Assembly: GCA_048939465.1 (NCBI GenBank)
Contig: JBHLPL010000002.1
Span: 5,608 to 37,607 of the forward strand
DNA from: Promethearchaeota archaeon
GTDB lineage: Archaea; Asgardarchaeota; Odinarchaeia; Odinarchaeales; JBHLKK01
Length of the DNA stretch: 32,000 nt
Direction of reading: 5' to 3'
Shown here: piece by piece, positions 12,523 to 24,856 of the stretch
Layout of the letters: every line of letters starts with the position of its first letter
How positions within the stretch are numbered: position 1 is the first letter of the stretch
Translations under genes and position numbers: made by a program
The notes under the pieces: model-generated
What the model saw: only the letters and a program-made list of their open reading frames with translations
Databases searched by the model: none
What the model was told of the DNA's origin: nothing

Positions 12523-12796
12523 CAGAACCACCCATTGACGTGGGCTACTAGGAGTATTTGATATATATTCTTTCTTTTTGTTTCAAACCTTTTGTACCAC
12601 CTCAAGCAAATGAGAGTTCCGCATTGGATTTGGGAATGGTCTTTGTGTTGATTTCGATTGCGCTTTCAGCCTTGATACTGGTCGCTCTAAAGAGAGTAGC
12701 ATAAGTTTAATTAGGTAACGTCAAATTCGTTAATCGATATATGCTAAAAGACGACATTCTTAAAGATCCTAGACGAAAAGTGGAGGATGAACCAAC

Positions 12797-14601
12797 TTGA
12801 TAAGACAACCCATTATATCGTTCTTGGGCCACATCGATGTGGGCAAAACAAGTCTCCTAGATAAGATAAGAGGAACAGTAGTTCAGCTTCGAGAGGCAGG
12901 GGGTATAATGTAGTAGCATAGACTACTCCATGCTAGACCCAGCATATCGGAGCTAGCTTCCTGCCCACTTCCGTTATAACAGCCATAGCAAAAGATCTTC
13001 TAAATCAATTCAAGATCAAAGTTACAATACCAGGATTGCTGGTTGTTGATAGCCCTGGGCATGCAGCATTTATGAACTTGAGAAGAAGAGCCGGGAGCGT
13101 CTGTGACATCGCCATTCTTGTGATTGATGTACTGGCAGGCTTTCAGCCTCAAACACACGAGTCCGTCAACATCCTGAAGGAGAGAAATACTCCGTTCCTG
13201 GTGGCGGCAAATAAGATAGATAGGGTTCCCGGATGGAAAGACAAAGAATCAACATCGTTCTTAGAATCTGTAAAGAAACAGGAAGAGTTTGTTAGGAAGA
13301 ATCTTGATCAGAAAATATACGAAATCGTTGGGGCCTTTTCAACAATAGGTTTTGAATCTGAAAGATTTGACAGAGTGGGAGATTTTACTAAGACCATCGC
13401 CATTGTGCCTACAAGTGCAAGAACTGGAGAAGGGATTGCAGAACTCCTGATGGTAATTGCAGGACTTACCCAACAATACATGATGAAACGTTTGGAGATT
13501 TCATCTGAAGGGGGCAGAGGAACAGTTTTGGAGGTCAAGGAGGAACCGGGGCTGGGAATTACCGTTGACACTGTTATCTATGATGGAGTGATCCACAAGG
13601 GAGACACCATCGTGGTAGGGAGCTTGGGTGATCCTATTGTAACTAAGATACGGGCAGTTCTGCTGCCAAAACCCCTTGATGAGATACGCGACCCCCGCGA
13701 ACGATTTGATCCTGTAAAGGAAGTTCAAGCAGCTGCAGGTATCAAGATAGCAGCACCTGCTCTTGAAGGGGCTATTGCTGGAGCCCCTTTGATTGTCGCG
13801 AACACAGAAAAGGAGATTGAAGAAGCAAAGAACGAAATATTGAGTGAGATTGAAAAGATCAGGATATCGACAGACAAAACAGGGATAATACTTAAGGCAG
13901 ACACGCTAGGTTCTTTAGAAGCTATTCTAAAATACTTCCAGGATCAAGGGATTGCAGTCAGAATAGCCGACGTTGGGGATATTTCAAAAAGAGACATAGT
14001 TGAGGCTGAAGTCGTTAAGGAACTTGATCCGCTTTCAGCGATTGTTCTTGGATTTAATGTCAAAGTACTGCCTGATGCCAAAGAGGAATCGGTTAAACAT
14101 GAAATTCCGATACTCCAAAACAGGATAATTTACCGATTGTTTGAGGAATATGACAATTGGCTATTTGAGAGGAGGGAAGAGCGAAAGAGAGAAGCATTGA
14201 AGACAGCCGTAAAACCAGGAAAGGTAAAAATCATTCCAGAATATATTTTTCGGCAAAGTAAGCCCGCGATCGTCGGTGTTGATGTTCTTAGCGGGCAAAT
14301 AGTCTCTCGGGTCAACTTGATAAAAGAGGATGGGAGCAGAGTAGGAACAATTCTTCAGATACAGGACAAAGGAGAAGTAATTCCTATTGCCAAGGCGGGA
14401 CAAGCTGTCGCCATTTCAATCAGGGGAGCCACCGTTGGTCGACAGATAAATGAGAATGACGTTCTATATGTCGATATGCCAGAAAGAGATGTCAGACTCT
14501 TCAAAGAACGTTTCAGAGACGAACTCTCTGTGGGTGAGTTGGAAGCTTTAGATGAATTAATCGAGATAAAGAGGAAATCAGATCCTACATGGGGTGCATA
14601 A
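12797..14601 (+). CDS. infB: Translation initiation factor aIF5B (IF-2); two exons 12797-12907 and 12937-14601, 591 aa after splicing
   Basis: Exon 1 (TTG) [36 protein letters not shown] joins exon 2 [19 protein letters not shown]; the ORF track shows only the part from 13036. Confidence 0.95.
12908..12936 (+). other. 29-nt BHB-type intron in infB mRNA
   Basis: Outer helix GGG/CCC, central helix GGUA/UGCU, bulges UA^A and AG^A, inner stem UG.AGUAG/CUACU.CA; contains in-frame TAG TAG; removal restores GGI-TQHIG. Confidence 0.88.
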
Positions 14602-14704
14602 TCTCAGTTTCAACAACTTTAAAAAAGAAAAGGTATGTTATTAGAATCACTTGGATGTCTTGTAATGAGGATTGACTAGCGTAACAATGGAGGTAGGAAA
14701 TCAG

Positions 14705-15097
14705 ATGTCAGAATTCAGATTAGTAATATCTGACCCAGAAACAGGCAAAGCTATCCAAACCCCCGTGAGAGAAGCCAAAGCCAGGGTGCTCTTAGGCAAA
14801 AAAATGGGGGAGATCGTCCCGGGAGACGCTCTGGGATTACCTGGATATGAACTCAGAATAACGGGAGGAAGTGACAAAGACGGTTTTCCCATGAGACGAG
14901 GAGTGCATGGCACTGTTCGTAAGAGAATTCTTCTAAGTAGACCACCTGCCTTTAAACCCGGTAGATCTGGCGAAAGGAGAAGGAAGACTGTTCGTGGAGA
15001 CACTATTACAGACGAGACTACTCAGATAAACTTCAAGATAGTCAAAAAAGGAGCAAAGCCTGTTGAAGAGTTAATTGGGATAAAACCCGAAACTTGA
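14705..15097 (+). CDS. rps6e: 30S ribosomal protein S6e
   Basis: FRLVISDPETG, ITGGSDKDGFPMR, GERRRKTVRG; SD GGAGGT. Confidence 0.97.
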   Translation: MSEFRLVISDPETGKAIQTPVREAKARVLLGKKMGEIVPGDALGLPGYELRITGGSDKDGFPMRRGVHGTVRKRILLSRPPAFKPGRSGERRRKTVRGDTITDETTQINFKIVKKGAKPVEELIGIKPET

Positions 15098-15131
15098 TTC
15101 AGATATAATTGATGTCAAAAGGAGACAATAA

Positions 15132-16412
15132 ATGCCTAAGGCGAAAAAAATATCTGTGCCAGAAGCTGAAAAAAAGCAGTGTGAGGTAAATGTAGGGGTT
15201 GTTGGTCACGTTGATCATGGAAAAACAACGCTAGTTCAATCGATAAGCGGGGAGTGGACAGATCGTTACAGCGAGGAAATAAAGCGAGGCATATCCATAA
15301 AGCTGGGTTATGCCACCGCAGTTGTAGTTAAGTGTCCTAAATGCCCCCCGCCTCAATGTTATATGACCACTACCATGTCTGGTGGCACAACATGTCCTCA
15401 CTGCGGATCCGAGGTTGAGTTTCTTCGAAAGATTTCCTTTGTCGATGCCCCAGGACATGAAATACTTATGGCTACAGTAATTTCAGGCGCCTCATTAATG
15501 GATGGGGCGATGCTTGTTATTGCCGCTAATGAAGAGTGTCCGCAGCCTCAAACACGAGAGCACCTGGCTGCTCTGCAAATCACTGGTGTGGAAAGAATTA
15601 TAATAGTTCAGAATAAGATCGAGCTGATCTCAGAAAAAGAAGGAATCAATCATCACAAGCAGATAAAGGATTTTGTTAAGGGAACCATCGCAGAGAAAGC
15701 TCCAATAATCCCCACATCTGCGATATTTAAATCAAATATTGATTTGGTAGTTCAGGCTATTGAAGAATTTGTGCCAACACCGAAAAGACACGTAACCAAA
15801 CCACTGCAGATGTTTACGGCACGTTCATTCGATGTAAATAAACCTGGAACTACTCCAAGAAAGCTTGTTGGGGGAGTAATTGGAGGGGCGATAGTCCAAG
15901 GAAGAGTCGAGATAGGAGAGAAAATAGAAATCAAGCCAGGAATAAGGGTCGAAAAAGAGGGGGAAACAAACTACCAACCACTTGTTACAAAGGTCGTGAG
16001 TCTCAAGGCAGGAAACGCTTCCCTGAAGGAAGCTTATCCTGGTGGACTGATTGGCATAGGCACGAAAATCGATCCATCTGTTACCAAGGCAGACGGACTG
16101 GTTGGCAATGTAGCGGGAGCAAAAGGAACACTGCCTCCAGTACTTGACAAACTGACGTTCAAAGCACATTTAATGGAACGAGTCGTGGGATCGAAGGATC
16201 TTCTGAAAGTAAAAGACATAAAAGCAAAAGAGAGTCTGATGATTAATGTGGGAGCGGCAGCTACACGTGGGCACGTAATCAGTGTAAAGGGAGACAGTAT
16301 TGATGTGGAATTACGGAGACCGGTATGTGCAGATTCAGGGCAAAGAATGGCTGTGAGCAGACTTGTCAAAGGTAGATGGAGACTCATAGGCTGGGGGGAA
16401 CTGACAGCTTAG
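15132..16412 (+). CDS. eif2g: Translation initiation factor aIF2 gamma subunit
   Basis: GHVDHGKTT, RGISIKLGY, Zn ribbon, DAPGHE, QNKIE, WRLIGWG. Confidence 0.97.
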   Translation: MPKAKKISVPEAEKKQCEVNVGVVGHVDHGKTTLVQSISGEWTDRYSEEIKRGISIKLGYATAVVVKCPKCPPPQCYMTTTMSGGTTCPHCGSEVEFLRKISFVDAPGHEILMATVISGASLMDGAMLVIAANEECPQPQTREHLAALQITGVERIIIVQNKIELISEKEGINHHKQIKDFVKGTIAEKAPIIPTSAIFKSNIDLVVQAIEEFVPTPKRHVTKPLQMFTARSFDVNKPGTTPRKLVGGVIGGAIVQGRVEIGEKIEIKPGIRVEKEGETNYQPLVTKVVSLKAGNASLKEAYPGGLIGIGTKIDPSVTKADGLVGNVAGAKGTLPPVLDKLTFKAHLMERVVGSKDLLKVKDIKAKESLMINVGAAATRGHVISVKGDSIDVELRRPVCADSGQRMAVSRLVKGRWRLIGWGELTA

Positions 16413-16479
16413 AGCCTGCAGATATTTCCACGAAGAACGTTAGTCTTCGGGATCTATAAAAGACTGGAGGCGAGCAACT

Positions 16480-16905
16480 ATACTTTGTGTCTTGCTTGAT
16501 ACTAACTTCCTTATGATGTCAGGCCAATTTAAAATTAACATTTTTTCAGAGCTTGACCGCATTATACAAAGGAAATACGTCCCTGTGATTCTATCCGCTA
16601 CCGTCGAAGAGTTGTGGAAGCTTTTGGAAAATGAAAAACCTAAGATTCAGCAGCAAGCATCATTAGCCTTAAAAATGGTAGAGGGGTGCGAGGTGAGAAA
16701 GGCAGACCGTTTGCCTAATGAGAATGTAGATGATTTAATTGTGCGGTACGCTAAGGAAAGCAAATGCATAGTTTCCACAAACGACAGAGAACTCAGGAAA
16801 AAGCTACGGAGAAATCACATAGCGGTAATATATCTAAGGCAAAAGGCGTTTCTGGCTTTGGATGGGGATATTCCACAAAGCTTTAGAAGAGAGACACGTT
16901 TATAA
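16480..16905 (+). CDS. PIN-domain protein (Fcf1/Utp24-like); start ATA 16480 or TTG 16492
   Basis: LLDTNFLM, VDDLIV, VSTNDRELRKKLR; usual position after eif2g. Confidence 0.88.
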   Translation: MLCVLLDTNFLMMSGQFKINIFSELDRIIQRKYVPVILSATVEELWKLLENEKPKIQQQASLALKMVEGCEVRKADRLPNENVDDLIVRYAKESKCIVSTNDRELRKKLRRNHIAVIYLRQKAFLALDGDIPQSFRRETRL

Positions 16906-17006
16906 ATAAAAACCCCAAAAATGGCTCATTTAAATCTTGATAACTCATAAAGAACTGAAATCCCCCTAATTAGCTCAATTAGATTCTTGTGAGAGTGCGT
17001 CAACGC

Positions 17007-17609
17007 ATGTATAAGTTGATGGTTGTTAGAGACACTGTTCGTATACCTCCAAGGAGATTTAGCGAACCCATAGAGGAAGTGGCGTTAGAGATATTGCGAG
17101 AGGAGCACGAAGGAATGATGAACCCCGAATTAGGGTTCATAATAGCAGTAATTGAAGTAAAAAATACGGATGTTGGGAAGTTGGTGCCAGGAGACGGCGC
17201 TGCATTTCACGATGTAGAATTCTCAGTCTTAGTCTTCAAACCAGACTTGCACGAAGTAATTGAAGGAGAAGTAGTAGAAGTCGTTGACTTTGGCGCCTTC
17301 GTTCGCCTTGGTCCCATAGATGGGTTATGCCACGTCAGTCAAATCACTGATGATTACATAAACTATGATTCAAAAAGGTCAGCTCTCTTGGGAAAAGAAA
17401 CAGGAAGAATATTAACAATAGGCGATCGGGTTCGTGCACGAATAATTGCAATGAGTATTCGAGGAGGCGCGAGAAGCGGAAAATTAGGTCTAACAATGCG
17501 ACAGCCTTTCCTAGGAAAGTTGGAATGGATAGAGGACGATAGCAAGAAAGCAGCTGAAAAGAAGAAGGAAAAGAAGAAAGAGAAGAAAAAGGGAACCGAA
17601 AAGGCATAG
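17007..17609 (+). CDS. rpoE1: DNA-directed RNA polymerase subunit E' (Rpo7)
   Basis: RDTVRIPP, GDGAAFH, FGAFVRLGPIDGLCHVSQI, TMRQPFLGKLEWI. Confidence 0.97.
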   Translation: MYKLMVVRDTVRIPPRRFSEPIEEVALEILREEHEGMMNPELGFIIAVIEVKNTDVGKLVPGDGAAFHDVEFSVLVFKPDLHEVIEGEVVEVVDFGAFVRLGPIDGLCHVSQITDDYINYDSKRSALLGKETGRILTIGDRVRARIIAMSIRGGARSGKLGLTMRQPFLGKLEWIEDDSKKAAEKKKEKKKEKKKGTEKA

Positions 17610-17622
17610 GAAGGATGTATGG

Positions 17623-17811
17623 TTGGTTAAAGAGCGTGCATGCAGAACATGCAGGAAGATAGTATCCGGACAGCTATGTCCTCGTTGCAAGACCTATACA
17701 CTGTCTCAAGATTTTGCTGGATTAGTCATTATTCTGGATGCTGAAGGTTCACAGATTGCAGAGAAACTTAACATAATGGAGAGGGGAAAGTACGCCTTGA
17801 AGGTTCGCTAA
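17623..17811 (+). CDS. rpoE2: RpoE''/Spt4 transcription elongation factor
   Basis: RACRTCRKI..CPRC, GLVIILDAEGSQIA, GKYALKVR. Confidence 0.95.
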   Translation: MVKERACRTCRKIVSGQLCPRCKTYTLSQDFAGLVIILDAEGSQIAEKLNIMERGKYALKVR

Positions 17812-17812
17812 A

Positions 17813-18328
17813 TTGAAAGATCTGAGAATAACTCCTAAACTCCGTCGAGAATTGAAAAAGCCGCAAGGTATCTTACTAAAAGGATCTGCAGACACAAACA
17901 TACGGATAATTGAAGAACTAGTAAAATCTTCAAAACCTCCTAAACTGGTAACGGTTGGGGATGTGGTTACAAGCAATCTTACGGACGCAAACATATTGCC
18001 CGATCTATGCATCATAGATGGTAAGACCCTACGAGGCGGGTACAAGATCAAGCTTAAGACAAAGAAGAACATAAGATTGAAAAATCCCAAAGGAACTGTA
18101 AGCTCAGAGGCTTGGGAAGCAATTAGGAAGGCCATTTCCTCAGAAGTCAAGGTTGGGATAATAGTAGAGGGAGAAGAAGATCTGCTAACCATTCCAGCAG
18201 TCCTCTTGGCCCCGAATCGTGCTATTGTGATATATGGTCAGCCAGACATTGGAGTGGTGATCGTAAAGGTCGACGAGGAAAGCAAGAAACATTATCGAGA
18301 GTTAGCAGAGCAAATGGAGGAAATTTAA
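17813..18328 (+). CDS. DUF359 family GTP-dependent dephospho-CoA kinase
   Basis: ELKKPQG, VTVGDVVT, IIDGKTLR, NPKGTV, VEGEEDLL, YGQP. Confidence 0.88.
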   Translation: MKDLRITPKLRRELKKPQGILLKGSADTNIRIIEELVKSSKPPKLVTVGDVVTSNLTDANILPDLCIIDGKTLRGGYKIKLKTKKNIRLKNPKGTVSSEAWEAIRKAISSEVKVGIIVEGEEDLLTIPAVLLAPNRAIVIYGQPDIGVVIVKVDEESKKHYRELAEQMEEI

Positions 18329-18712
18329 TTGTCCATGAAAATTGACGTTATTTCGGAGAAGAAAAATCCCTTGCTAGGAAGAAACGAGATATATTTCGAA
18401 ATCTCTCATCCGAATAAAGGAAGTCCAATGAGGAAAAACATAAGGGAAAATTTGGCCTCGAGATACAAGGTGGATCTAGATTTGGTCTTCATACGTAGAC
18501 TTATGCCGGTTGCGGGAAAGCAGAAAATTAAGGGAACTGCAAGAATCTACGAAGATAAGGATCGAGCCGGACTTGTTGAAGCTAAGCACATAGTAAGCAG
18601 AAATCAGACAGAAGTAGAAGAAAAAGAGGAAGTAGAGAAGGAGAAGCCGAAGGAGAAGCCGAAGGAGAAGCCGAAGGAGAAGCCGAAGGAGAAGCCGAAG
18701 GAGAAGGGTTAG
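18329..18712 (+). CDS. rps24e: 30S ribosomal protein S24e with a (KEKP)n C-terminal tail
   Basis: KNPLLGRNE, GTARIYED, HIVSRN; conserved gene order. Confidence 0.94.
   Translation: MSMKIDVISEKKNPLLGRNEIYFEISHPNKGSPMRKNIRENLASRYKVDLDLVFIRRLMPVAGKQKIKGTARIYEDKDRAGLVEAKHIVSRNQTEVEEKEEVEKEKPKEKPKEKPKEKPKEKPKEKG
18637..18706 (+). repeat. Perfect 12-nt tandem repeat (GAAGGAGAAGCC) x5 plus a 10-nt partial copy
   Basis: Read directly; encodes KEKP repeats. Confidence 0.97.
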
Positions 18713-18745
18713 AAGAAACTTGGGGAGTAATAGGTGGTAGTTTCT

Positions 18746-19044
18746 GTAAACTACTCCTCCCTCGCAGAAGGGGCTCATGACTGTGCTTGACCGCAATTCC
18801 CTCCCGAGCTCCGGTTTCATCACAAGTCAAATCAAGGGGCGATTTGCAGCGCCCCAGCCCGGTGATCCGTGCATAGCGCCGAGCTTAAGAGTTTTCCTCG
18901 CCTATCCTCGCACGGGTCATTGACCGTTTCCGCCTCCAAGAGAGGTGTCCCTTCAGACCTATTAGTATATATAGCACAAACTCAGTTAAAGATCCCTCAA
19001 TTCCTCTCCGCCCTTTCGGACGGAGTCCCCCAGAGGTGGTTCCT
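18746..19044 (-). mobile_element. About 300-bp IS200/IS605-like mini-element (copy B)
   Basis: Left-end hairpin ACTCCGTCC-GAAA-GGGCGGAG; TATATATA spacer; right end GAGCCCCTTCTGCGAGGGAGGAGTAGTTTAC; collinear with 22841-23145 (+). Confidence 0.8.
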
Positions 19045-19242
19045 ACGAGCGTCAAAGAATATTATACGGTATCAAAGGACGGAAAAATTGCTAGATTGAA
19101 GAAGAATTGTCCCAGATGCGGACTTGGCACATTCATGGCAGAGCATTCTGATCGATGGAGTTGCGGCAAGTGTGGTTGGACTGAATTCAAGAAAGGGGAG
19201 ATTGAAGACCACGAAAAAGAGGAAAAACTAAATCAGTCTTAA
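19036..19242 (+). CDS. rps27ae: 30S ribosomal protein S27ae; start GTG 19036 or ACG 19045
   Basis: [30 protein letters not shown]. Confidence 0.95.
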
Positions 19243-19336
19243 TCCATAATAGATAGGATAGAATACATAATAGATAAGACGGATAGGGTATATTTCTTTG
19301 AAAGGCTCTGACTTCTTCCGGCACAATTCTCGGGCG

Positions 19337-19936
19337 TCAAGCAGCAGCTTTGGTTACCGGCTCGGAAACTAATTTACTCTTACGCACTTCGCATTTCCTT
19401 AACGGCATAATCTTTTTGCTTTCATTATAGATTTCAGATCCAATCTTTCCGAGCACACATTCATGTACAAATTGCTGGAAAGTCAGTTCCTTTGCCTTTC
19501 TATAAACAGTTTCTTTCATTATTTTGCGGATTCTACGCTCTTGACTGGTCTTGGCTCTATTATGCGTAAATGCTATTGTAGAGATAATTAAGCGATACCT
19601 GTCTTTGGTCATAATACTGAATCGACCGTCAATCCTGGTACTTCCTCGGCGAACTAAACTCCTGAGGTAATCCCGGGCAAAATTGTGACCTTTGAATATG
19701 GTATAAGCTGATTTATCTTTTACTTCTTTAATCTGGAAGAGAAGTTGTATGTGTCCAAGAGTCATATCGCCTGTAATATCATACAGCGTAGCCTCTACAA
19801 CTCTACCTATCAGCCTGTCAGGATCGTTTGTGACGGTTTCACCTATTTCGATGTCTCCGAGATATTTAGGCGAGTATATAGTGAACCAAGATTTAGTTCT
19901 CCATGTATCCTTGACTTTGCTTCGAGACATGGTCAT
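19337..19936 (-). CDS. rps3ae: 30S ribosomal protein S3ae (eS1)
   Basis: KVKDTWRTKSWF, FKGHNFARDYLRSLVRR, KIMPLRKCEVRK. Confidence 0.97.
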   Translation of the reverse strand: MTMSRSKVKDTWRTKSWFTIYSPKYLGDIEIGETVTNDPDRLIGRVVEATLYDITGDMTLGHIQLLFQIKEVKDKSAYTIFKGHNFARDYLRSLVRRGSTRIDGRFSIMTKDRYRLIISTIAFTHNRAKTSQERRIRKIMKETVYRKAKELTFQQFVHECVLGKIGSEIYNESKKIMPLRKCEVRKSKLVSEPVTKAAA

Positions 19937-20002
19937 TCATCTCCTTAGGAATCATGGTAGACGAAAAATCAAATAAAAACCTTTCTTAAAAGTTGACTGC
20001 TT

Positions 20003-20221
20003 TTACTTAATATCTTCCACCGATTTGATGGTGGCCAATAGACTGTCAAGTGAAGTCATGACCTTATCGATGTTTTCTTCATAATGGGCGGATATCTCAA
20101 GTTTTCTTCCAACGCACACAACTTCTACCCTGCGATCGTTTCGATAATGATGTTGCAGGCTTTTTGTGACAGCTCTAGTCCTTTTTTCGGTTGCGCAGTC
20201 CAGCGTTAGCTTTATTTTGAT
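20003..20221 (-). CDS. pcc1: KEOPS subunit Pcc1 (absent from the ORF track; no ATG/GTG/TTG start)
   Basis: Open frame IKIKLTLDCATEKRTRAVTKSLQHHYRNDRRVEVVCVGRKLEISAHYEENIDKVMTSLDSLLATIKSVEDIK*; size, pattern and position (rps15-recJ-pcc1-rps3ae) fit Pcc1. Confidence 0.75.
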   Translation of the reverse strand: MKIKLTLDCATEKRTRAVTKSLQHHYRNDRRVEVVCVGRKLEISAHYEENIDKVMTSLDSLLATIKSVEDIK

Positions 20222-21684
20222 TCCTTGCGTTTTTCGTCCCCCATTTGCTCCCTAATAATCTTTTCCAGATGAAAAACTAATTTCTCTTCACTTCCTGCGG
20301 GGATTAAAGCACCCGCAGCAGCATCGTGTCCTCCTGCTGTGGCTTCTTTTAGTTTAATCTCCTCTATAACTTGGCTTAGAGCCAATCCAAGATTAACACC
20401 GCTCTCAACTAGCTCTTCCCCTGCACGCAACGATACTTTTACACCTTCCGGGTCTGAATAGGCGAAGGAAACAATGACTTTGTCAGACTTCAATATTCGT
20501 GCGTGCAAGGCAACAGATGCAACAGTGCCAATTATTCGTTCATCAACAACATTTTCGCCATGAAAGACCTGAAGAAACTCAGTTTCCTTAACGCGACCTG
20601 GCTGTGTAAGCCATTCGATATATTTTGATATTTTCTGGCGATACTCTACAAGTAATTGCTGTGCTTCCATCAGGGCATTTACTCTGTCGCCAAGACATAT
20701 TGCCACACCCACCCCAGGATGTCTGATTCTACCACAGGCGTTCAGAAGAGAGGCAAATTCTCTGGCATCCCTCAAAGGCGTTCCTTTTTCCTCTCTGAGT
20801 AGAGTGTACACATTCCCAACAATACTCTCAGCCTTATCAGAATCTATACCTTGTTGCAACATGTACTGAATAAGGGCGCTATTCAGTTGGATTTTCTCAT
20901 CTTGTGAGAGATCAGAGAGAGTTCTCCAATGATCGTCTTCTTTCAGTTTTATTCCAGCCTTGGACAAGAACATGAAGCATCTTTCCCCGCTACCTGTCAA
21001 ACCGGGTATGAATGGATCTGTCGTGTATTGCAGTGCAACGTGAATTGGCCTGGTTTCACGTCCAAAGATGGATAAATCCTTCTCTACTCTAAGAACCCCC
21101 GATTCCACACCATCCTTGACGATGATGTCCCCATTTATGCCAAAAAAATCTCGGTGTTCTGCTTTATCCTGTATATCACCTACAGCTCCGACGACAGCGA
21201 GATGAGCAAGATCCCTATTCTCCTTGTTAATGCTTCTGGCCACGAGGTAGGAAACCCCAGCCCCGCTTACTTCCTGACCTCCGTTTATCCCGTATAAATG
21301 GGGGTTTACATGAACCAATCCCGGAAAATCACCTGCGTTCCCCATCTCATGATGATCTAGTATTATTACTGAACTTTCAGAAAGATAGTCTTTAATAGAA
21401 TTTAGCTGAGCAGAACCAAGATCGGAAAAAACATAGAAGGATCGGTTTTCGTCTGCTAGTTCCTTGATGATTTGTGGATTGATTTGCTTCACCACTCGAA
21501 TGTGAAAGGCCATACCAAGCCGTAATAATGTCAATCCAATTACTCCTGCCGCTGCTATTCCGTCTGCGTCATAGTGGGAAGTGATCCGAACTATCCCTTT
21601 TTCATCCGCCCATTCTTGGAGCTTCTCCCCAGCTCTCTTGGCAAGTTTTAGAAAGCTATCAAGATCTCTACTCACCAATCTCAA
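20212..21684 (-). CDS. recJ: DHH-family RecJ-like exonuclease (GAN / Cdc45-related)
   Basis: SHYDADG, SDLGS, LDHH, GAVGD, AREFASLLNACGR, GGHDAAAG; follows rps15. Confidence 0.9.
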   Translation of the reverse strand: MRLVSRDLDSFLKLAKRAGEKLQEWADEKGIVRITSHYDADGIAAAGVIGLTLLRLGMAFHIRVVKQINPQIIKELADENRSFYVFSDLGSAQLNSIKDYLSESSVIILDHHEMGNAGDFPGLVHVNPHLYGINGGQEVSGAGVSYLVARSINKENRDLAHLAVVGAVGDIQDKAEHRDFFGINGDIIVKDGVESGVLRVEKDLSIFGRETRPIHVALQYTTDPFIPGLTGSGERCFMFLSKAGIKLKEDDHWRTLSDLSQDEKIQLNSALIQYMLQQGIDSDKAESIVGNVYTLLREEKGTPLRDAREFASLLNACGRIRHPGVGVAICLGDRVNALMEAQQLLVEYRQKISKYIEWLTQPGRVKETEFLQVFHGENVVDERIIGTVASVALHARILKSDKVIVSFAYSDPEGVKVSLRAGEELVESGVNLGLALSQVIEEIKLKEATAGGHDAAAGALIPAGSEEKLVFHLEKIIREQMGDEKRKESK

Positions 21685-21717
21685 TCATCCGAAAATTCCT
21701 TTAAGATTCCTTAGAGC

Positions 21718-22173
21718 CTATCGTACCATCAGTACAGCCTTATCACGACTATATTTCCAATCAGAAGGAAGGATGCCCTTTTTCTTATAATACTTGGAGA
21801 GACGATGGATCTTGCTCTCTATTAGTTGTAGCCCCCGCTTTGAGTGAAGATCTTTCGGATGTTCCTCCAGATGCCTTCTCAAGTTCACAGAACTCTGCAA
21901 CAAGTCAATAAGATCTTCAGGTAATGAAGGAAGTAATTCACGTTCTTTTAGAATCTGAGTCACTGACTTACCAGCAGCCAACTTAACTAAGGGAACCCCG
22001 TATTGATCCCTCATAATATTACCTATCATTGAGGGGGGCTCCCCCGCTTTGGCCAATTTGACTACCAGAGCCTCTACTTCATCAGCGTTTCTCATAAACC
22101 ATTCAGGAGACTTTGTTCGAGGAGGTCTGGTGGATTTTGATTTCCCTTTCCTACGGGTGTGCATCCTTGCCAT
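21718..22173 (-). CDS. rps15: 30S ribosomal protein S15 (uS15)
   Basis: [40 protein letters not shown]. Confidence 0.97.
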
Positions 22174-22208
22174 ATTACTCCACCGCCAAAATCAAGATAC
22201 TTGAGGGC

Positions 22209-22222
22209 TTTTAAATTTTCTG
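22209..22222 (-). promoter_or_regulatory. Putative BRE/TATA promoter of rps15
   Basis: CAGAAAA-TTTAAAA on the minus strand about 36 nt upstream of ATG. Confidence 0.45.
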
Positions 22223-22276
22223 ATTTATGATCTACAGCCAGTTCAGTATGTTAAAACCATTAAGAAGGCTTAAACC

Positions 22277-22840
22277 TCATCGAGCCGAGAAGTTCTTCTT
22301 TAACCAATCTGCAAACTTGTACAAAACCTTCTTTCTGTGAGAAAGTTTGTTTTTTTCATCAAAACCCATTTCAGCATAGGTTCTACCGTCACCCTCCAGC
22401 GGGACAAAAATAGGATCGTATCCCCAGAGTTTACCCCGTTCTTCTTCGGAAATTGTACCTTCTACATTGGCAGAAATGCATGTAGATACTCGATCATGAG
22501 AGAAGGCGATAACTGACTTAAAGACTGCCTTCCTTGTTGCGACTCCCTCCATCAACCTTAGAATCCCCTTATTCCCTATAGTTTTGAAGACGTACGAAGA
22601 GTACGGGCCAGGAAAGCCGTTAAGTGCTTCGATAAACAGCCCGGTATCTTCCACAAAAACTGGTTTTTTGATCTTTTTAGAAACTAGAGACACACTGTAT
22701 GAGGCTATTTTCTCTAGACTTTCATGTTGAGGTTCAATCCTCTCGATATCCAGATGTTCAATCTCAAAGCCTATCTTTCCCAATATTTCAGATGCCTCTC
22801 TTATCTTATTCTTATTACTTGTAGCAAAAAGCAGCTTCAT
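22277..22840 (-). CDS. rdgB: dITP/XTP pyrophosphatase (Ham1/RdgB)
   Basis: FATSNKNK, EDTGLFIEALNGFPGPYS, WGYDPIF, KNKLSHR. Confidence 0.95.
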   Translation of the reverse strand: MKLLFATSNKNKIREASEILGKIGFEIEHLDIERIEPQHESLEKIASYSVSLVSKKIKKPVFVEDTGLFIEALNGFPGPYSSYVFKTIGNKGILRLMEGVATRKAVFKSVIAFSHDRVSTCISANVEGTISEEERGKLWGYDPIFVPLEGDGRTYAEMGFDEKNKLSHRKKVLYKFADWLKKNFSAR

Positions 22841-23145
22841 TTGATCGCCTCGAGGAAACTCCGACCAAAAGGACGGAGAGGGATTAAGGAGTCGATGAAT
22901 GCTATTGGGACATACGCACCAATAGATTTGAAGTCACACCTCTCTTCGATGTGGAAACAGCTAATGACGGATGAGGGTGGGCGCCATGGACTGATAGCCA
23001 CTGTATCGCCTGACGCTATATGCAGATTACTGGGTTCAGACGCTTTGGACTTGCTGCCAATCTGGCCTGTGATGCGACCAAAGCCCATTTGGGAATTAAG
23101 GTCCAGCATAGTCATAAACTCCTTCACTAAGATGGAGTATTTCAT
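22841..23145 (+). mobile_element. 305-bp IS200/IS605-like mini-element (copy A) inserted at the bud32/rdgB overlap
   Basis: Follows TTCAT (22836-22840) and ends in TTCAT (23141-23145); left-end hairpin ACTCCGACC-AAAA-GGACGGAG; collinear with copy B. Confidence 0.82.
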
Positions 23146-23771
23146 CTATCTTCGATATATCGTCCACGTCTCTCGACCTCCCCTATGCGAAGTATAGCAT
23201 CCTCCGCATCCTTGCCCAAGACCTCACGATAACCAGCCAAAACTGCTTCGAAAAACTCTTCAGCGTGTTGATAGTGAGTACTTTGTAAGGCACGCTGCAT
23301 AAGGTGGAGATCCACTCCTTTATGTTCAATTTCTGATGAGTGCTCACCCAATCCAAAATCTATGAAGTATATTTGCTTTTCAGAGGTCAAGATCATATTT
23401 GAGGTAGTTAAATCACCATGTATAAGTCCGTTCTTATGGAGACGTCCGATTGAGCGTCCTACACAGGTACAGACTCTTTTCTGTTCTTGTCTTGTAATTT
23501 CATTAATAACATTCTTAAGCTTCTGCCCATCAATGTATTCGTAAATGATGGTGGTTTTAGGAACATCTACTTGGCATATTGCCGGAGTGGAAACCCCAGC
23601 TTTTCTAGCACTGCTGAACATCTTGGCTTCATGAATCGTCCTGTATTGCCTGATCCTTAGATCCAGTTCAGGAATTCGATATCTCTTTGCTACCCTGCAC
23701 TTCCGTACGACAACTCTGTCGTACCACTTCTCCTTAAACAAATAAGCTTCAGCACCTTTGGCCATGAGCAA
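23142..23771 (-). CDS. bud32: KEOPS kinase Bud32 (piD261/PRPK)
   Basis: KGAEA, RTIHEAKM, IHGDLTTSNM, IDFGLG, VDLHLM, RGRY. Confidence 0.95.
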   Translation of the reverse strand: MLMAKGAEAYLFKEKWYDRVVVRKCRVAKRYRIPELDLRIRQYRTIHEAKMFSSARKAGVSTPAICQVDVPKTTIIYEYIDGQKLKNVINEITRQEQKRVCTCVGRSIGRLHKNGLIHGDLTTSNMILTSEKQIYFIDFGLGEHSSEIEHKGVDLHLMQRALQSTHYQHAEEFFEAVLAGYREVLGKDAEDAILRIGEVERRGRYIEDR

Positions 23772-23783
23772 CTTGATCCTCCC

Positions 23784-24789
23784 CTAATCTCTCCAGACAA
23801 TATCAACTTCATCGAGTCGCCATTTTGGCTTTACGCTACTATTTTTTAATTTCAAAACCTGTCCATGTTTGTACTGTAACATCCCTGTCCATGCTATCAT
23901 CGCTCCATTGTCCCCAGAGAATCTGTTCGAGACCACACGAAACTTTGCATTATGCTCCTTAGCAATGGATTTAAGCATCTCCTGCAGTCTTTTGTTTGCA
24001 GCTACACCTCCCGTTAATAGAACAGCAGGCTTTTCAGTGTGTGCGAGGGCACGCTCCGTAACTTCGGTCAACATTGAAAATGCAACTTCCTGTAAGCTGA
24101 AACAAAGATCTTCGATTCTGTTCTCATGAAGTTTGTTTGTTGCAGCAGTTAGGAGACCGGAATAGGATAAGTCCATACCTTTGACAGTGTAGGGTAAATC
24201 AATGAACCGCTTGCCTTTCTTTGCTAACCTTTCTATCTTGGGGCCACCTGGATGTTTGAGTCCTGCTGAACGCGCAAAAGCATCGAGCAAATTACCTATG
24301 GGAATATCTAGGGTTTCCCCAAACACACGATACCTACCTCCGTCATAGGCCGCGACTATGGTATTGCCACCTGAAACATACAAAGTAACCGGATCTTCCG
24401 TATTGGAAGCAAGGCGCCCTATCTCTATATGAGCGACACAGTGATTCACACCGACGAGCGGGACTTCAGTAACTAACGCCAAAGCTCGAGCAGCAACAGC
24501 AGCAGTCCTAAGACAGGGACCTTTCAGCAAACTGTTGGCAGAGTTTTAAACCGGGTCCCTGAGAGAATGCCACGAATTCAATGTCGCTCAGGCTTATCTT
24601 TGCTTCTTCTACTGCTCTTACAATAGTTTTCTCTGCAACCCGTACATGGTGTTGGGCCGCTTCTCGAGGATGGATGCCACCCGTTTCTGGTTGATACACG
24701 CTTTCAACACTCGTAAGGATTCTTCCTTCAGGCGTTACTATGCCAACACTGAACGTGTGGGCAGTTCCCTCAATACCCAAACCCACCAC
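23784..24789 (-). CDS. kae1: tRNA t6A synthase Kae1; two exons 24789-24548 and 24522-23784, 326 aa after splicing
   Basis: LGIEGTAHTFSVG, GGIHPREAAQHH, AFSQGPGL|GPCLR, VNHCVAH, VSGGNT, GGVAAN, DNGAMIA; the ORF track splits it into two frames. Confidence 0.95.
24523..24547 (-). other. 25-nt BHB-type intron in kae1 mRNA
   Basis: 8-bp outer helix CAGGGACC/GGUCCCUG, central helix CGGU/GCUG, bulges UU^A and AA^A, inner stem AAACU/AGUUU; removal restores GPGLGPCLR. Confidence 0.92.
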
Positions 24790-24856
24790 TATTAACACCT
24801 CAAGAAAGGAAGATAAATACTATGATTTAAAAAACAACTGTTTTTGGCAGTGATTT

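Follow-up and report, generated by a model that had tools for sequence, protein, structure and literature searches.

The bulge-helix-bulge (BHB) intron in the cbf5 precursor messenger RNA (pre-mRNA) of Crenarchaeota is a short intron of a coding sequence (Watanabe 2002; Yoshinari 2006; Yokobori 2009, PMC2738675). Its motif is a (relaxed) BHB, it is removed by the hetero-oligomeric (alpha-beta)2 form of the transfer RNA (tRNA) splicing endonuclease EndA and the ends are religated, and its gain and loss among relatives is patchy. In Haloferax volcanii, the HVO_1309 mRNA is cut by EndA (Schwarz 2020, PMC7714728; review PMC10485636). Asgard archaea possess an (alpha-beta)2 EndA with an L1 loop, and its broad specificity accepts relaxed and non-canonical BHB motifs (PMC5829648). 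Introns of archaeal pre-tRNAs occupy canonical and non-canonical positions, and heavily interrupted tRNA genes are described for Asgard archaea in a study that does not mention mRNA introns (bioRxiv 10.64898/2026.10.13.758758). Outside the archaea, unconventional cytoplasmic splicing of HAC1/XBP1 removes a small mRNA intron, and the metazoan ends are ligated by RtcB (PMC8718801). In the literature searched, BHB introns of coding regions were found only for cbf5 of Crenarchaeota, beside the EndA processing of HVO_1309 in Haloferax, and none were found in Asgard or Hodarchaeales mRNAs. In this work, a stretch of 32,000 nucleotides (nt) from a Promethearchaeota archaeon was analysed (contig JBHLPL010000002.1; G000:C69:5608-37607, hereafter the window, where G000 is the genome under study and other G numbers are genomes of relatives). 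Two of its genes are broken by small inserts, namely aIF5B (infB), which acts in translation initiation, and kae1, which acts in the synthesis of N6-threonylcarbamoyladenosine (t6A). We consider it highly probable that both inserts are genuine BHB (tRNA-type) introns in protein-coding transcripts and that they are members of a genome-wide set. The observations behind this reading are the structure of the sites, the agreement of cut sites with junctions, conservation, covariation, the enzyme genes and a census of the genome.

The kae1 gene is read on the minus strand. Its exon 1 (24548..24798, with an inferred GTG start at 24798) ends with ...FSQGPG(L), and its exon 2 (23784..24522, 245 codons and a stop) starts with (L)GPCLRT and is the sole match in the genome at E <= 1e-30. 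The coordinates of the Pfam TsaD profile adjoin across the break, with positions 12-61 on the first piece and 64-264 on the second. As the DNA stands, the first frame ends at 24508 and reads ...FSQGPGLKLCQQFAERSLS up to its stop (in a longer stretch, FVAFSQGPGLKLCQQFAERSLS and the stop), and the second frame, 24545-23784, holds GPCLRT within ...GPCLRTAAVAARAL... Deletion of 24547-24523, which is the 25-nt insert, rebuilds the Kae1 reading FSQGPGLGPCLRT. The unconstrained minimum free energy structure of the site is a textbook hBHBh' fold, in which a central helix with two 3-nt bulges is flanked by an exon-exon helix (h) and an intron hairpin (h'). The whole motif (24514..24561) includes an exon helix of 8 base pairs (bp) between 24561-24554 and 24521-24514, and a 4-bp central helix CGGT:GCTG between 24553-24550 and 24528-24525. 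The bulges are tta (24549-24547) and aaa (24524-24522), and the intron hairpin (24546-24529) has a 5-bp helix.

The aIF5B gene lies on the plus strand. Exon 1 (12797..12907) has an inferred TTG start at 12797 with GGAGG at 12782-12786, runs from the P-loop through ...REAGGI, and shows 88.6% identity to the ortholog in the single-contig relative G003 over 35 amino acids (aa). Exon 2 (12937..14601, 554 codons and a stop) starts with TQHIGA (TQHIGASF), carries the Pfam domains GTP_EFTU, IF-2 and GTP_EFTU_D4, and is the sole match in the genome at E <= 0.001. The GTP_EFTU profile is found on both pieces, 4-27 and then 65-185, in the right order although not adjoining. The upstream open frame (12791-12913) ends with ...REAGGIM and a stop, and the next frame opens at 12937. 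Between the exons lies an insert of 29 nt (12908..12936) with TAG TAG right after the 5' cut, and its deletion rebuilds the reading REAGGITQHIGA. The whole motif spans 12896..12943. Its exon helix (12896-12901 with 12938-12943) consists of GGG:CCC and 2 bp past an A-A mismatch, and its central helix (12902-12905 with 12931-12934) is GGTA:TGCT with two G-U pairs. The bulges are taa (12906-12908) and aga (12935-12937), and the intron hairpin (12909-12930) has a helix of 2+5 bp. The assignment of this layout comes from a fixed-geometry pair count, and covariation supports it.

Both sites thus contain the two features that define the motif, i.e. the central helix with two 3-nt bulges and the flanking helices h and h'. 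The layout used for scoring was 5'-outer helix, 4-nt central strand, 3-nt bulge, inner helix...inner helix, 4-nt central strand, 3-nt bulge, outer helix-3'. Cutting was taken to occur behind the second nucleotide of each bulge, as in the 37/38 case of pre-tRNA. The score S was counted as twice the number of central pairs, to which the paired ones of the first six positions in each flanking helix were added. It amounts to 19 for kae1 (H 4/4, A 6/6, B 5) and 18 for aIF5B (H 4/4), and 14 of the 15 introns of the genome described below reach S>=15; the probability at a random site is 3e-5 for S>=18 and 0.004 for S>=15. The cut sites given by this geometry coincide to the base with the junctions that homology defines and that rebuild the protein, at both sites. 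Cutting and joining there gives GGI-TQHIGA and GPGL-GPCLR (a hyphen marks the intron site), and the same applies to the inserts of 13-33 nt in relatives. Each gene has one match in the genome, and both exons of each are open and conserved in relatives, with identities of 44-100% for aIF5B and 50-100% for kae1. The original prediction had proposed that the two inserts share an architecture and no sequence, and that their position in conserved motifs and their lengths would make splicing obligatory. This description was borne out, since both inserts fold as hBHBh' with no sequence in common, both lie inside invariant motifs, and neither length (29 and 25 nt) is divisible by 3. ARAGORN found no tRNA gene in the window (G+C about 44%), and Rfam gave no match there at gathering scores.

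Among 30 relatives, 21 have a full-length frame at kae1 exon 2, and nine have a truncated one. The nine inserts stand at one codon and measure 25, 25, 25, 28, 30, 32, 26, 14 and 14 nt, and all of their central helices are perfect. A sample of 151 genomes of the phylum contributes four f19 genomes (28-29 nt) and two more of family f7 (14 and 13 nt), and an insert of 13-32 nt at the same codon is found in 17 genomes of four families (f1, f2, f7 and f19, with truncated frame). Covariation was computed on the alignment of nine sequences. In this alignment 98.6% of pair cells are paired, the central helix is paired in 100% (9/9 sequences), and nine of the 17 pairs change on both sides. When the 3' partner was slid by one to three columns, pairing dropped to 26-51%. 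None of 500 shuffles reached the observed covariation score, a result that is supportive and not a probability because the sequences are related. One pair links the third bases of two Gly codons, that of QGP and that of GPC, and A-U, U-A, G-C and C-G all occur there; for a second pair (CAG/CAA with CTG/TTG), two joint changes are seen. Compensatory changes in synonymous codon positions mean that selection acts on RNA pairing between two coding stretches, for which a structural RNA signal is the only explanation. The shortest kae1 introns, of 13 and 14 nt, occur in L139 (G056:C3:33600-33860) and L138 (G073); their inner part is 6-7 nt long, which is close to the smallest possible BHB intron. 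The break in kae1 of another relative (L140, G140:C10:76045-76305) was rejected as an intron. It is a 1-nt frameshift just before RGPGLGPCLR, probably either genuine or due to a sequencing error. Downstream of kae1 in the window, bud32 (TTG start at 23771; region 23142-23786, minus strand) comes after the kae1 stop (23786-23784) and uses the same frame; the two genes are separate but in register. These two KEOPS genes are fused in many archaea.

The GGI-TQ site of aIF5B is occupied in G000, G001 and G002 (29 nt, one genus), in G022 (33 nt) and in G012 (30 nt), and it is uninterrupted in G003-G006 and G014. The hairpins of the five introns are unrelated; their bulges, central helix and geometry are conserved. 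The central helix is 100% paired in the five aligned sequences, 93% of all pair cells are paired, and seven of 18 pairs change on both sides. Slid partners pair in at most 37% of cells and the observed covariation score was reached by 0 of 500 shuffles, which again supports the structure without being a probability, as the sequences are related. The outer helix has 6 bp in both G022 and G012, together with intron helices of 10 and 8 bp, respectively. A different 29-nt, BHB-like intron interrupts aIF5B in G011 and G021 at GKT-S/L of the P-loop, in a family without the GGI-TQ intron. In the genome under study, the introns of aIF5B and of a gene for an EF-2-like GTPase are offset from each other by one codon within the homologous switch-I motif (GGI-T and RG-IT). 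The original prediction had also suggested that intron gain be traced across relatives. The occupancy of the sites could be mapped. On the Kae1 protein tree, which does not resolve the deep branches, the kae1 intron takes one to three changes (three on the free tree), and the aIF5B intron requires at least two. A single origin of the kae1 intron is neither demonstrated nor rejected by this tree (p=0.19 in the approximately unbiased test).

The genome also encodes candidates for the enzymes that would be needed. Two paralogs of EndA (PF01974) were found. The first (204 aa, contig C90) is closest to the Aeropyrum pernix chain 3P1Z_B (E 1.5e-44), aligns ungapped through the loop region, with HSPF against HAPF, and in our own reading would be the catalytic alpha subunit with an L1/CSL loop. 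The second (191 aa, contig C139) is closest to the Methanocaldococcus jannaschii enzyme and has Val at the position of His in EHSVY, as would be expected of a structural beta subunit. An (alpha-beta)2 architecture is predicted. Two RtcB genes (PF01139) are present as well, on contigs C31 and C78. One of them (G000:C31:2961-5708, minus strand) forms a 973-aa open frame with an in-frame insert of about 1380 nt (460 codons) between profile positions 57 and 45, which looks like an intein. Aragorn recognized only 25 tRNA genes in the genome, and 19 of these contain introns, in line with the abundance of introns in Asgard tRNA genes (bioRxiv 10.64898/2026.10.13.758758). Many tRNA genes probably escape recognition because of heavy interruption. 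The cbf5 gene of this genome shows no intron of the crenarchaeal kind; its TruB_N match falls within an uninterrupted open frame of 345 aa. The predicted mechanism is the same as for the cbf5 intron, but the introns here are in other genes.

For the census, the open frames of G003 were compared with the genome by tblastn, and collinear alignments with a frame change or enclosed stops were collected. In a second route, BHB candidates were selected whose junction peptide matches an uninterrupted G003 frame; such matches numbered seven for the true geometry and one for the mirror geometry. In total, 15 introns in 11 genes were verified, and because the census requires a conserved ortholog in G003, this is a lower bound. 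The original prediction had placed the aIF5B and kae1 introns within a larger set removable by the tRNA-splicing machinery. This inference is supported in silico: other disruptions flanked by BHB motifs do occur, with 13 further introns in nine other genes, and the enzyme types on which such splicing would depend are now identified as a two-paralog EndA of (alpha-beta)2 type and two RtcB genes. The EF-2-like GTPase gene has an intron of 31 nt (ERG-ITIK), gatA one of 32 nt (DEFAM-GSS) and pyrG one of 31 nt (SGI-GKG). Introns of 30, 24, 27 and 31 nt interrupt the genes of a class-III aminotransferase, a DRG GTPase, an amidohydrolase and UPF0147, respectively, and gcvPA has one of 29 nt that measures 29 nt in G003 too. 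The ahcY gene carries five, of 28 nt (GGCEE-TTTGV), 32 nt (WDFD-NIYG), 27 nt (NTGH-FNVE, in frame and with no stop), 30 nt (NLAAA-EGHPS) and 22 nt (PSE-VMDM), and the last two enclose a micro-exon of 15 nt. Pfam confirms the identities of the genes and shows that every large exon has a boundary inside a domain. G003 itself has introns in kae1 (28 nt) and gcvPA, and a canonical 34-nt BHB intron (ERMYS-VWIGGS, S=18, plus strand near 535,632) in an actin-family gene, whose ortholog in G000 (C38:18287-19471) is uninterrupted. The sequence of ahcY is spread over two contigs (G000:C118:346-509 and G000:C24:7268-7334), the ends of which share about 60 nt immediately upstream of the 27-nt intron; this overlap might reflect strain heterogeneity.

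Several candidates were rejected in the course of the census. A comparison of BHB candidates common to G000 and G003 by their junction 7-mers recovered only kae1 and gcvPA. Among the other 12 distinct shared sites, 11 are antisense shadows in uninterrupted strong alignments, and one (C71) lies inside an uninterrupted alignment of the same strand. N-run scaffold gaps account for the split alignments of C20, C116 (15.3 kb) and C31. In-frame extras of 183 nt (C101) and 219 nt (C4) have no convincing BHB, and the BHB matches of a 201-nt in-frame extra on C77 (34886-34681) are weak and at chance level. Weak in-frame candidates on C21, C33, C51 and C116 (12.9 kb) were kept outside the verified set.

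Some observations weigh against the reading of the inserts as spliced introns of a genome-wide set. The outer helix of the aIF5B motif is short (3 bp, and 2 bp past the mismatch), and the unconstrained minimum free energy fold at this site favours a slightly different pairing. The insert in the EF-2-like gene has a relaxed motif only, which lacks an outer helix (S=10). The metagenome-assembled genome (MAG) is 91% complete and consists of 152 contigs. In addition, ribosomes would have to stay off the unspliced mRNA despite presumably coupled transcription and translation. A reference-free scan, in which strict or relaxed BHB motifs were combined with the merging of two open frames, gave the same counts as mirror-geometry decoys at every threshold. 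For example, at S>=17 and L<=45, there were 145 frameshifting candidates versus 135 decoys, and 127 in-frame candidates versus 136 decoys. The census is therefore not extendable without homology, and the scan only bounds the number. As true and mirror counts are equal, the total is in the tens at most, not hundreds and not about 120, and the genome probably holds 20-40 introns. The density of the window (two per 32 kb) had been considered in the original prediction as possibly typical of the genome, which was not confirmed: the lower bound is 15 per 1.96 Mb, the genome average is about one per 100-130 kb, and the reference-free scan showed no excess over decoys.

Three other explanations of the breaks were considered. 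It is extremely improbable that they are artefacts of assembly or sequencing, or decaying pseudogenes of the MAG. The genome is indeed a fragmented metagenome bin (152 contigs, 3.8% contamination) in which several other split alignments turned out to be N-run scaffold gaps, but neither site contains N runs, and the same inserts are present in separately assembled genomes, including the single-contig G003 (1,418,269 bp) and G042 (3,576,204 bp). Moreover, there is one match per gene with both exons conserved and free of stops, and the lengths of the inserts vary, yet their removal always restores the frame. On the other hand, the ribosome could cope with the break by programmed frameshifting or by bypassing (hopping) of the phage T4 gene 60 type, and no RNA would then be removed. 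As in gene 60, a stop codon follows soon after the break at both sites and a hairpin is found in the gap. However, the take-off and landing codons do not match as they do in gene 60, being ATA and ACC in aIF5B and TTA and GGT in kae1. What is conserved corresponds instead to an EndA substrate, in which exactly 4 bp separate the two 3-nt bulges and compensatory synonymous changes preserve the exon-exon helix, and no single recoding rule fits gaps of 13-33 nt at one site together with in-frame inserts containing stops elsewhere. We regard this explanation as very improbable.

The third explanation accepts the introns as real and gives them a regulatory role. In this case, aIF5B, Kae1 and the other hosts would be gated by EndA and RtcB as a switch that couples translation capacity and t6A synthesis to tRNA processing. 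Several hosts have functions linked to translation or tRNA (aIF5B, the EF-2-like protein, DRG, Kae1 and gatA), the kae1 intron has been retained for very long, in four families, and two stop codons stand directly after the 5' cut in aIF5B. The apparent enrichment of such hosts can, however, be explained by a detection that is biased to conserved genes, and plain metabolic genes are interrupted too (ahcY, pyrG, gcvPA, the aminotransferase and the amidohydrolase). In addition, the aIF5B intron is absent from the close relatives G003-G006, and the sequences bear no sign of condition-dependent folding. A regulatory switch is therefore unlikely in our view, and we infer that the origin of the introns was neutral.

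Returning to the reading of the inserts as spliced introns, we infer from the sequence alone that both are cleaved and ligated in vivo, and the messenger RNAs of this genome very probably need the tRNA-splicing enzymes. We hypothesize that the pre-mRNA folds locally, so that exon sequences on either side of the intron would pair into the outer helix. The last four nucleotides of exon 1 would pair with four nucleotides near the 3' end of the intron into the central helix, and the remainder of the intron would form the hairpin, resulting in two 3-nt bulges four bp apart. The heterotetrameric (alpha-beta)2 EndA would cut each bulge after its second nucleotide, and RtcB would join the 2',3'-cyclic phosphate and 5'-OH ends, by which the frame and the motifs GGITQHIGA and GPGLGPCLR would be restored. 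Transcripts that remain unspliced would give only truncated, inactive aIF5B and Kae1. With regard to origin, the introns most likely go back to the heavy tRNA-intron load of the lineage and its broad-specificity EndA, with which BHB inserts in mRNA would be tolerated; such inserts would become frozen where the exon half of the motif falls in protein-constrained sequence. On inspection, no sequence is common to the introns. This speaks against a recent burst of a single mobile family; slow independent gains would be compatible with it, and so would old introns with freely drifting hairpins.

A wider proposal can be put forward only tentatively, and we would give it somewhat less than an even chance. 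According to it, a branch of the Asgard archaea, comprising the seven-genome class of this MAG and at least two further families, would run a constitutive and ancient mRNA-splicing layer on the tRNA-splicing enzymes. Tens of core genes would be interrupted, some by five introns with micro-exons down to 15 nt. Invariant motifs would be where introns persist preferentially, since protein constraint freezes the exon half of the BHB at such places. Such a layer would also mean that the cell must keep ribosomes off unspliced transcripts, which implies some uncoupling of transcription and translation or some quality control, and this would hold for close prokaryotic relatives of eukaryotes.

Compared with the cbf5 intron, the introns described here occur in Asgard archaea and in other genes, with at least 15 per genome versus one. 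They number up to five per gene with a 15-nt micro-exon, they are much shorter (13-33 nt at the aIF5B and kae1 sites), and they show compensation in synonymous positions. HVO_1309 is likewise an archaeal mRNA whose BHB motif is a substrate of EndA, as is predicted here, but it is a single case from a euryarchaeon with an alpha-2 (homodimeric) TSEN (review PMC10485636), whereas the introns in this genome are numerous and lie inside invariant motifs of essential genes. The introns of archaeal pre-tRNAs resemble them in motif, predicted enzymes and small size range, and there too a gene can hold several introns. In an mRNA, by contrast, excision must be exact to the nucleotide for the frame to be kept. 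With HAC1/XBP1 they share the small size of the mRNA intron and, as predicted here, cutting by an endonuclease in structured loops, ligation by RtcB (for HAC1/XBP1 in metazoa) and the change of frame; there, the endonuclease is Ire1 and not the tRNA-splicing enzyme, and there is one regulated target instead of a constitutive set. The predicted mechanism is the known one. What is new is the scale, with many genes, multi-intron genes and micro-exons, as well as the phylum and the deep conservation with covariation at the codon level.

The introns, at least 15 in number, hit essential genes of translation initiation, elongation-factor-like GTPases, t6A synthesis, cytidine triphosphate synthesis and methyl-cycle metabolism. 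If splicing is confirmed, it would mean that gene callers systematically mis-annotate such genomes with split or truncated core genes, and that the marker-gene sets and completeness estimates of Asgard MAGs are affected. EndA and RtcB would be essential for the expression of mRNA, beyond the maturation of tRNA. Furthermore, the way in which a prokaryote-grade cell prevents translation of unspliced mRNA would bear on the separation of splicing and translation toward eukaryotes. With respect to the bulges themselves, the 3' bulge nearly always has A, then A or G, then A, namely aa-a in 8 and ag-a in 3 of the 15 introns, and in the 5' bulge A prevails at the third nucleotide. Such a bias may reflect a lineage-specific preference of the endonuclease.

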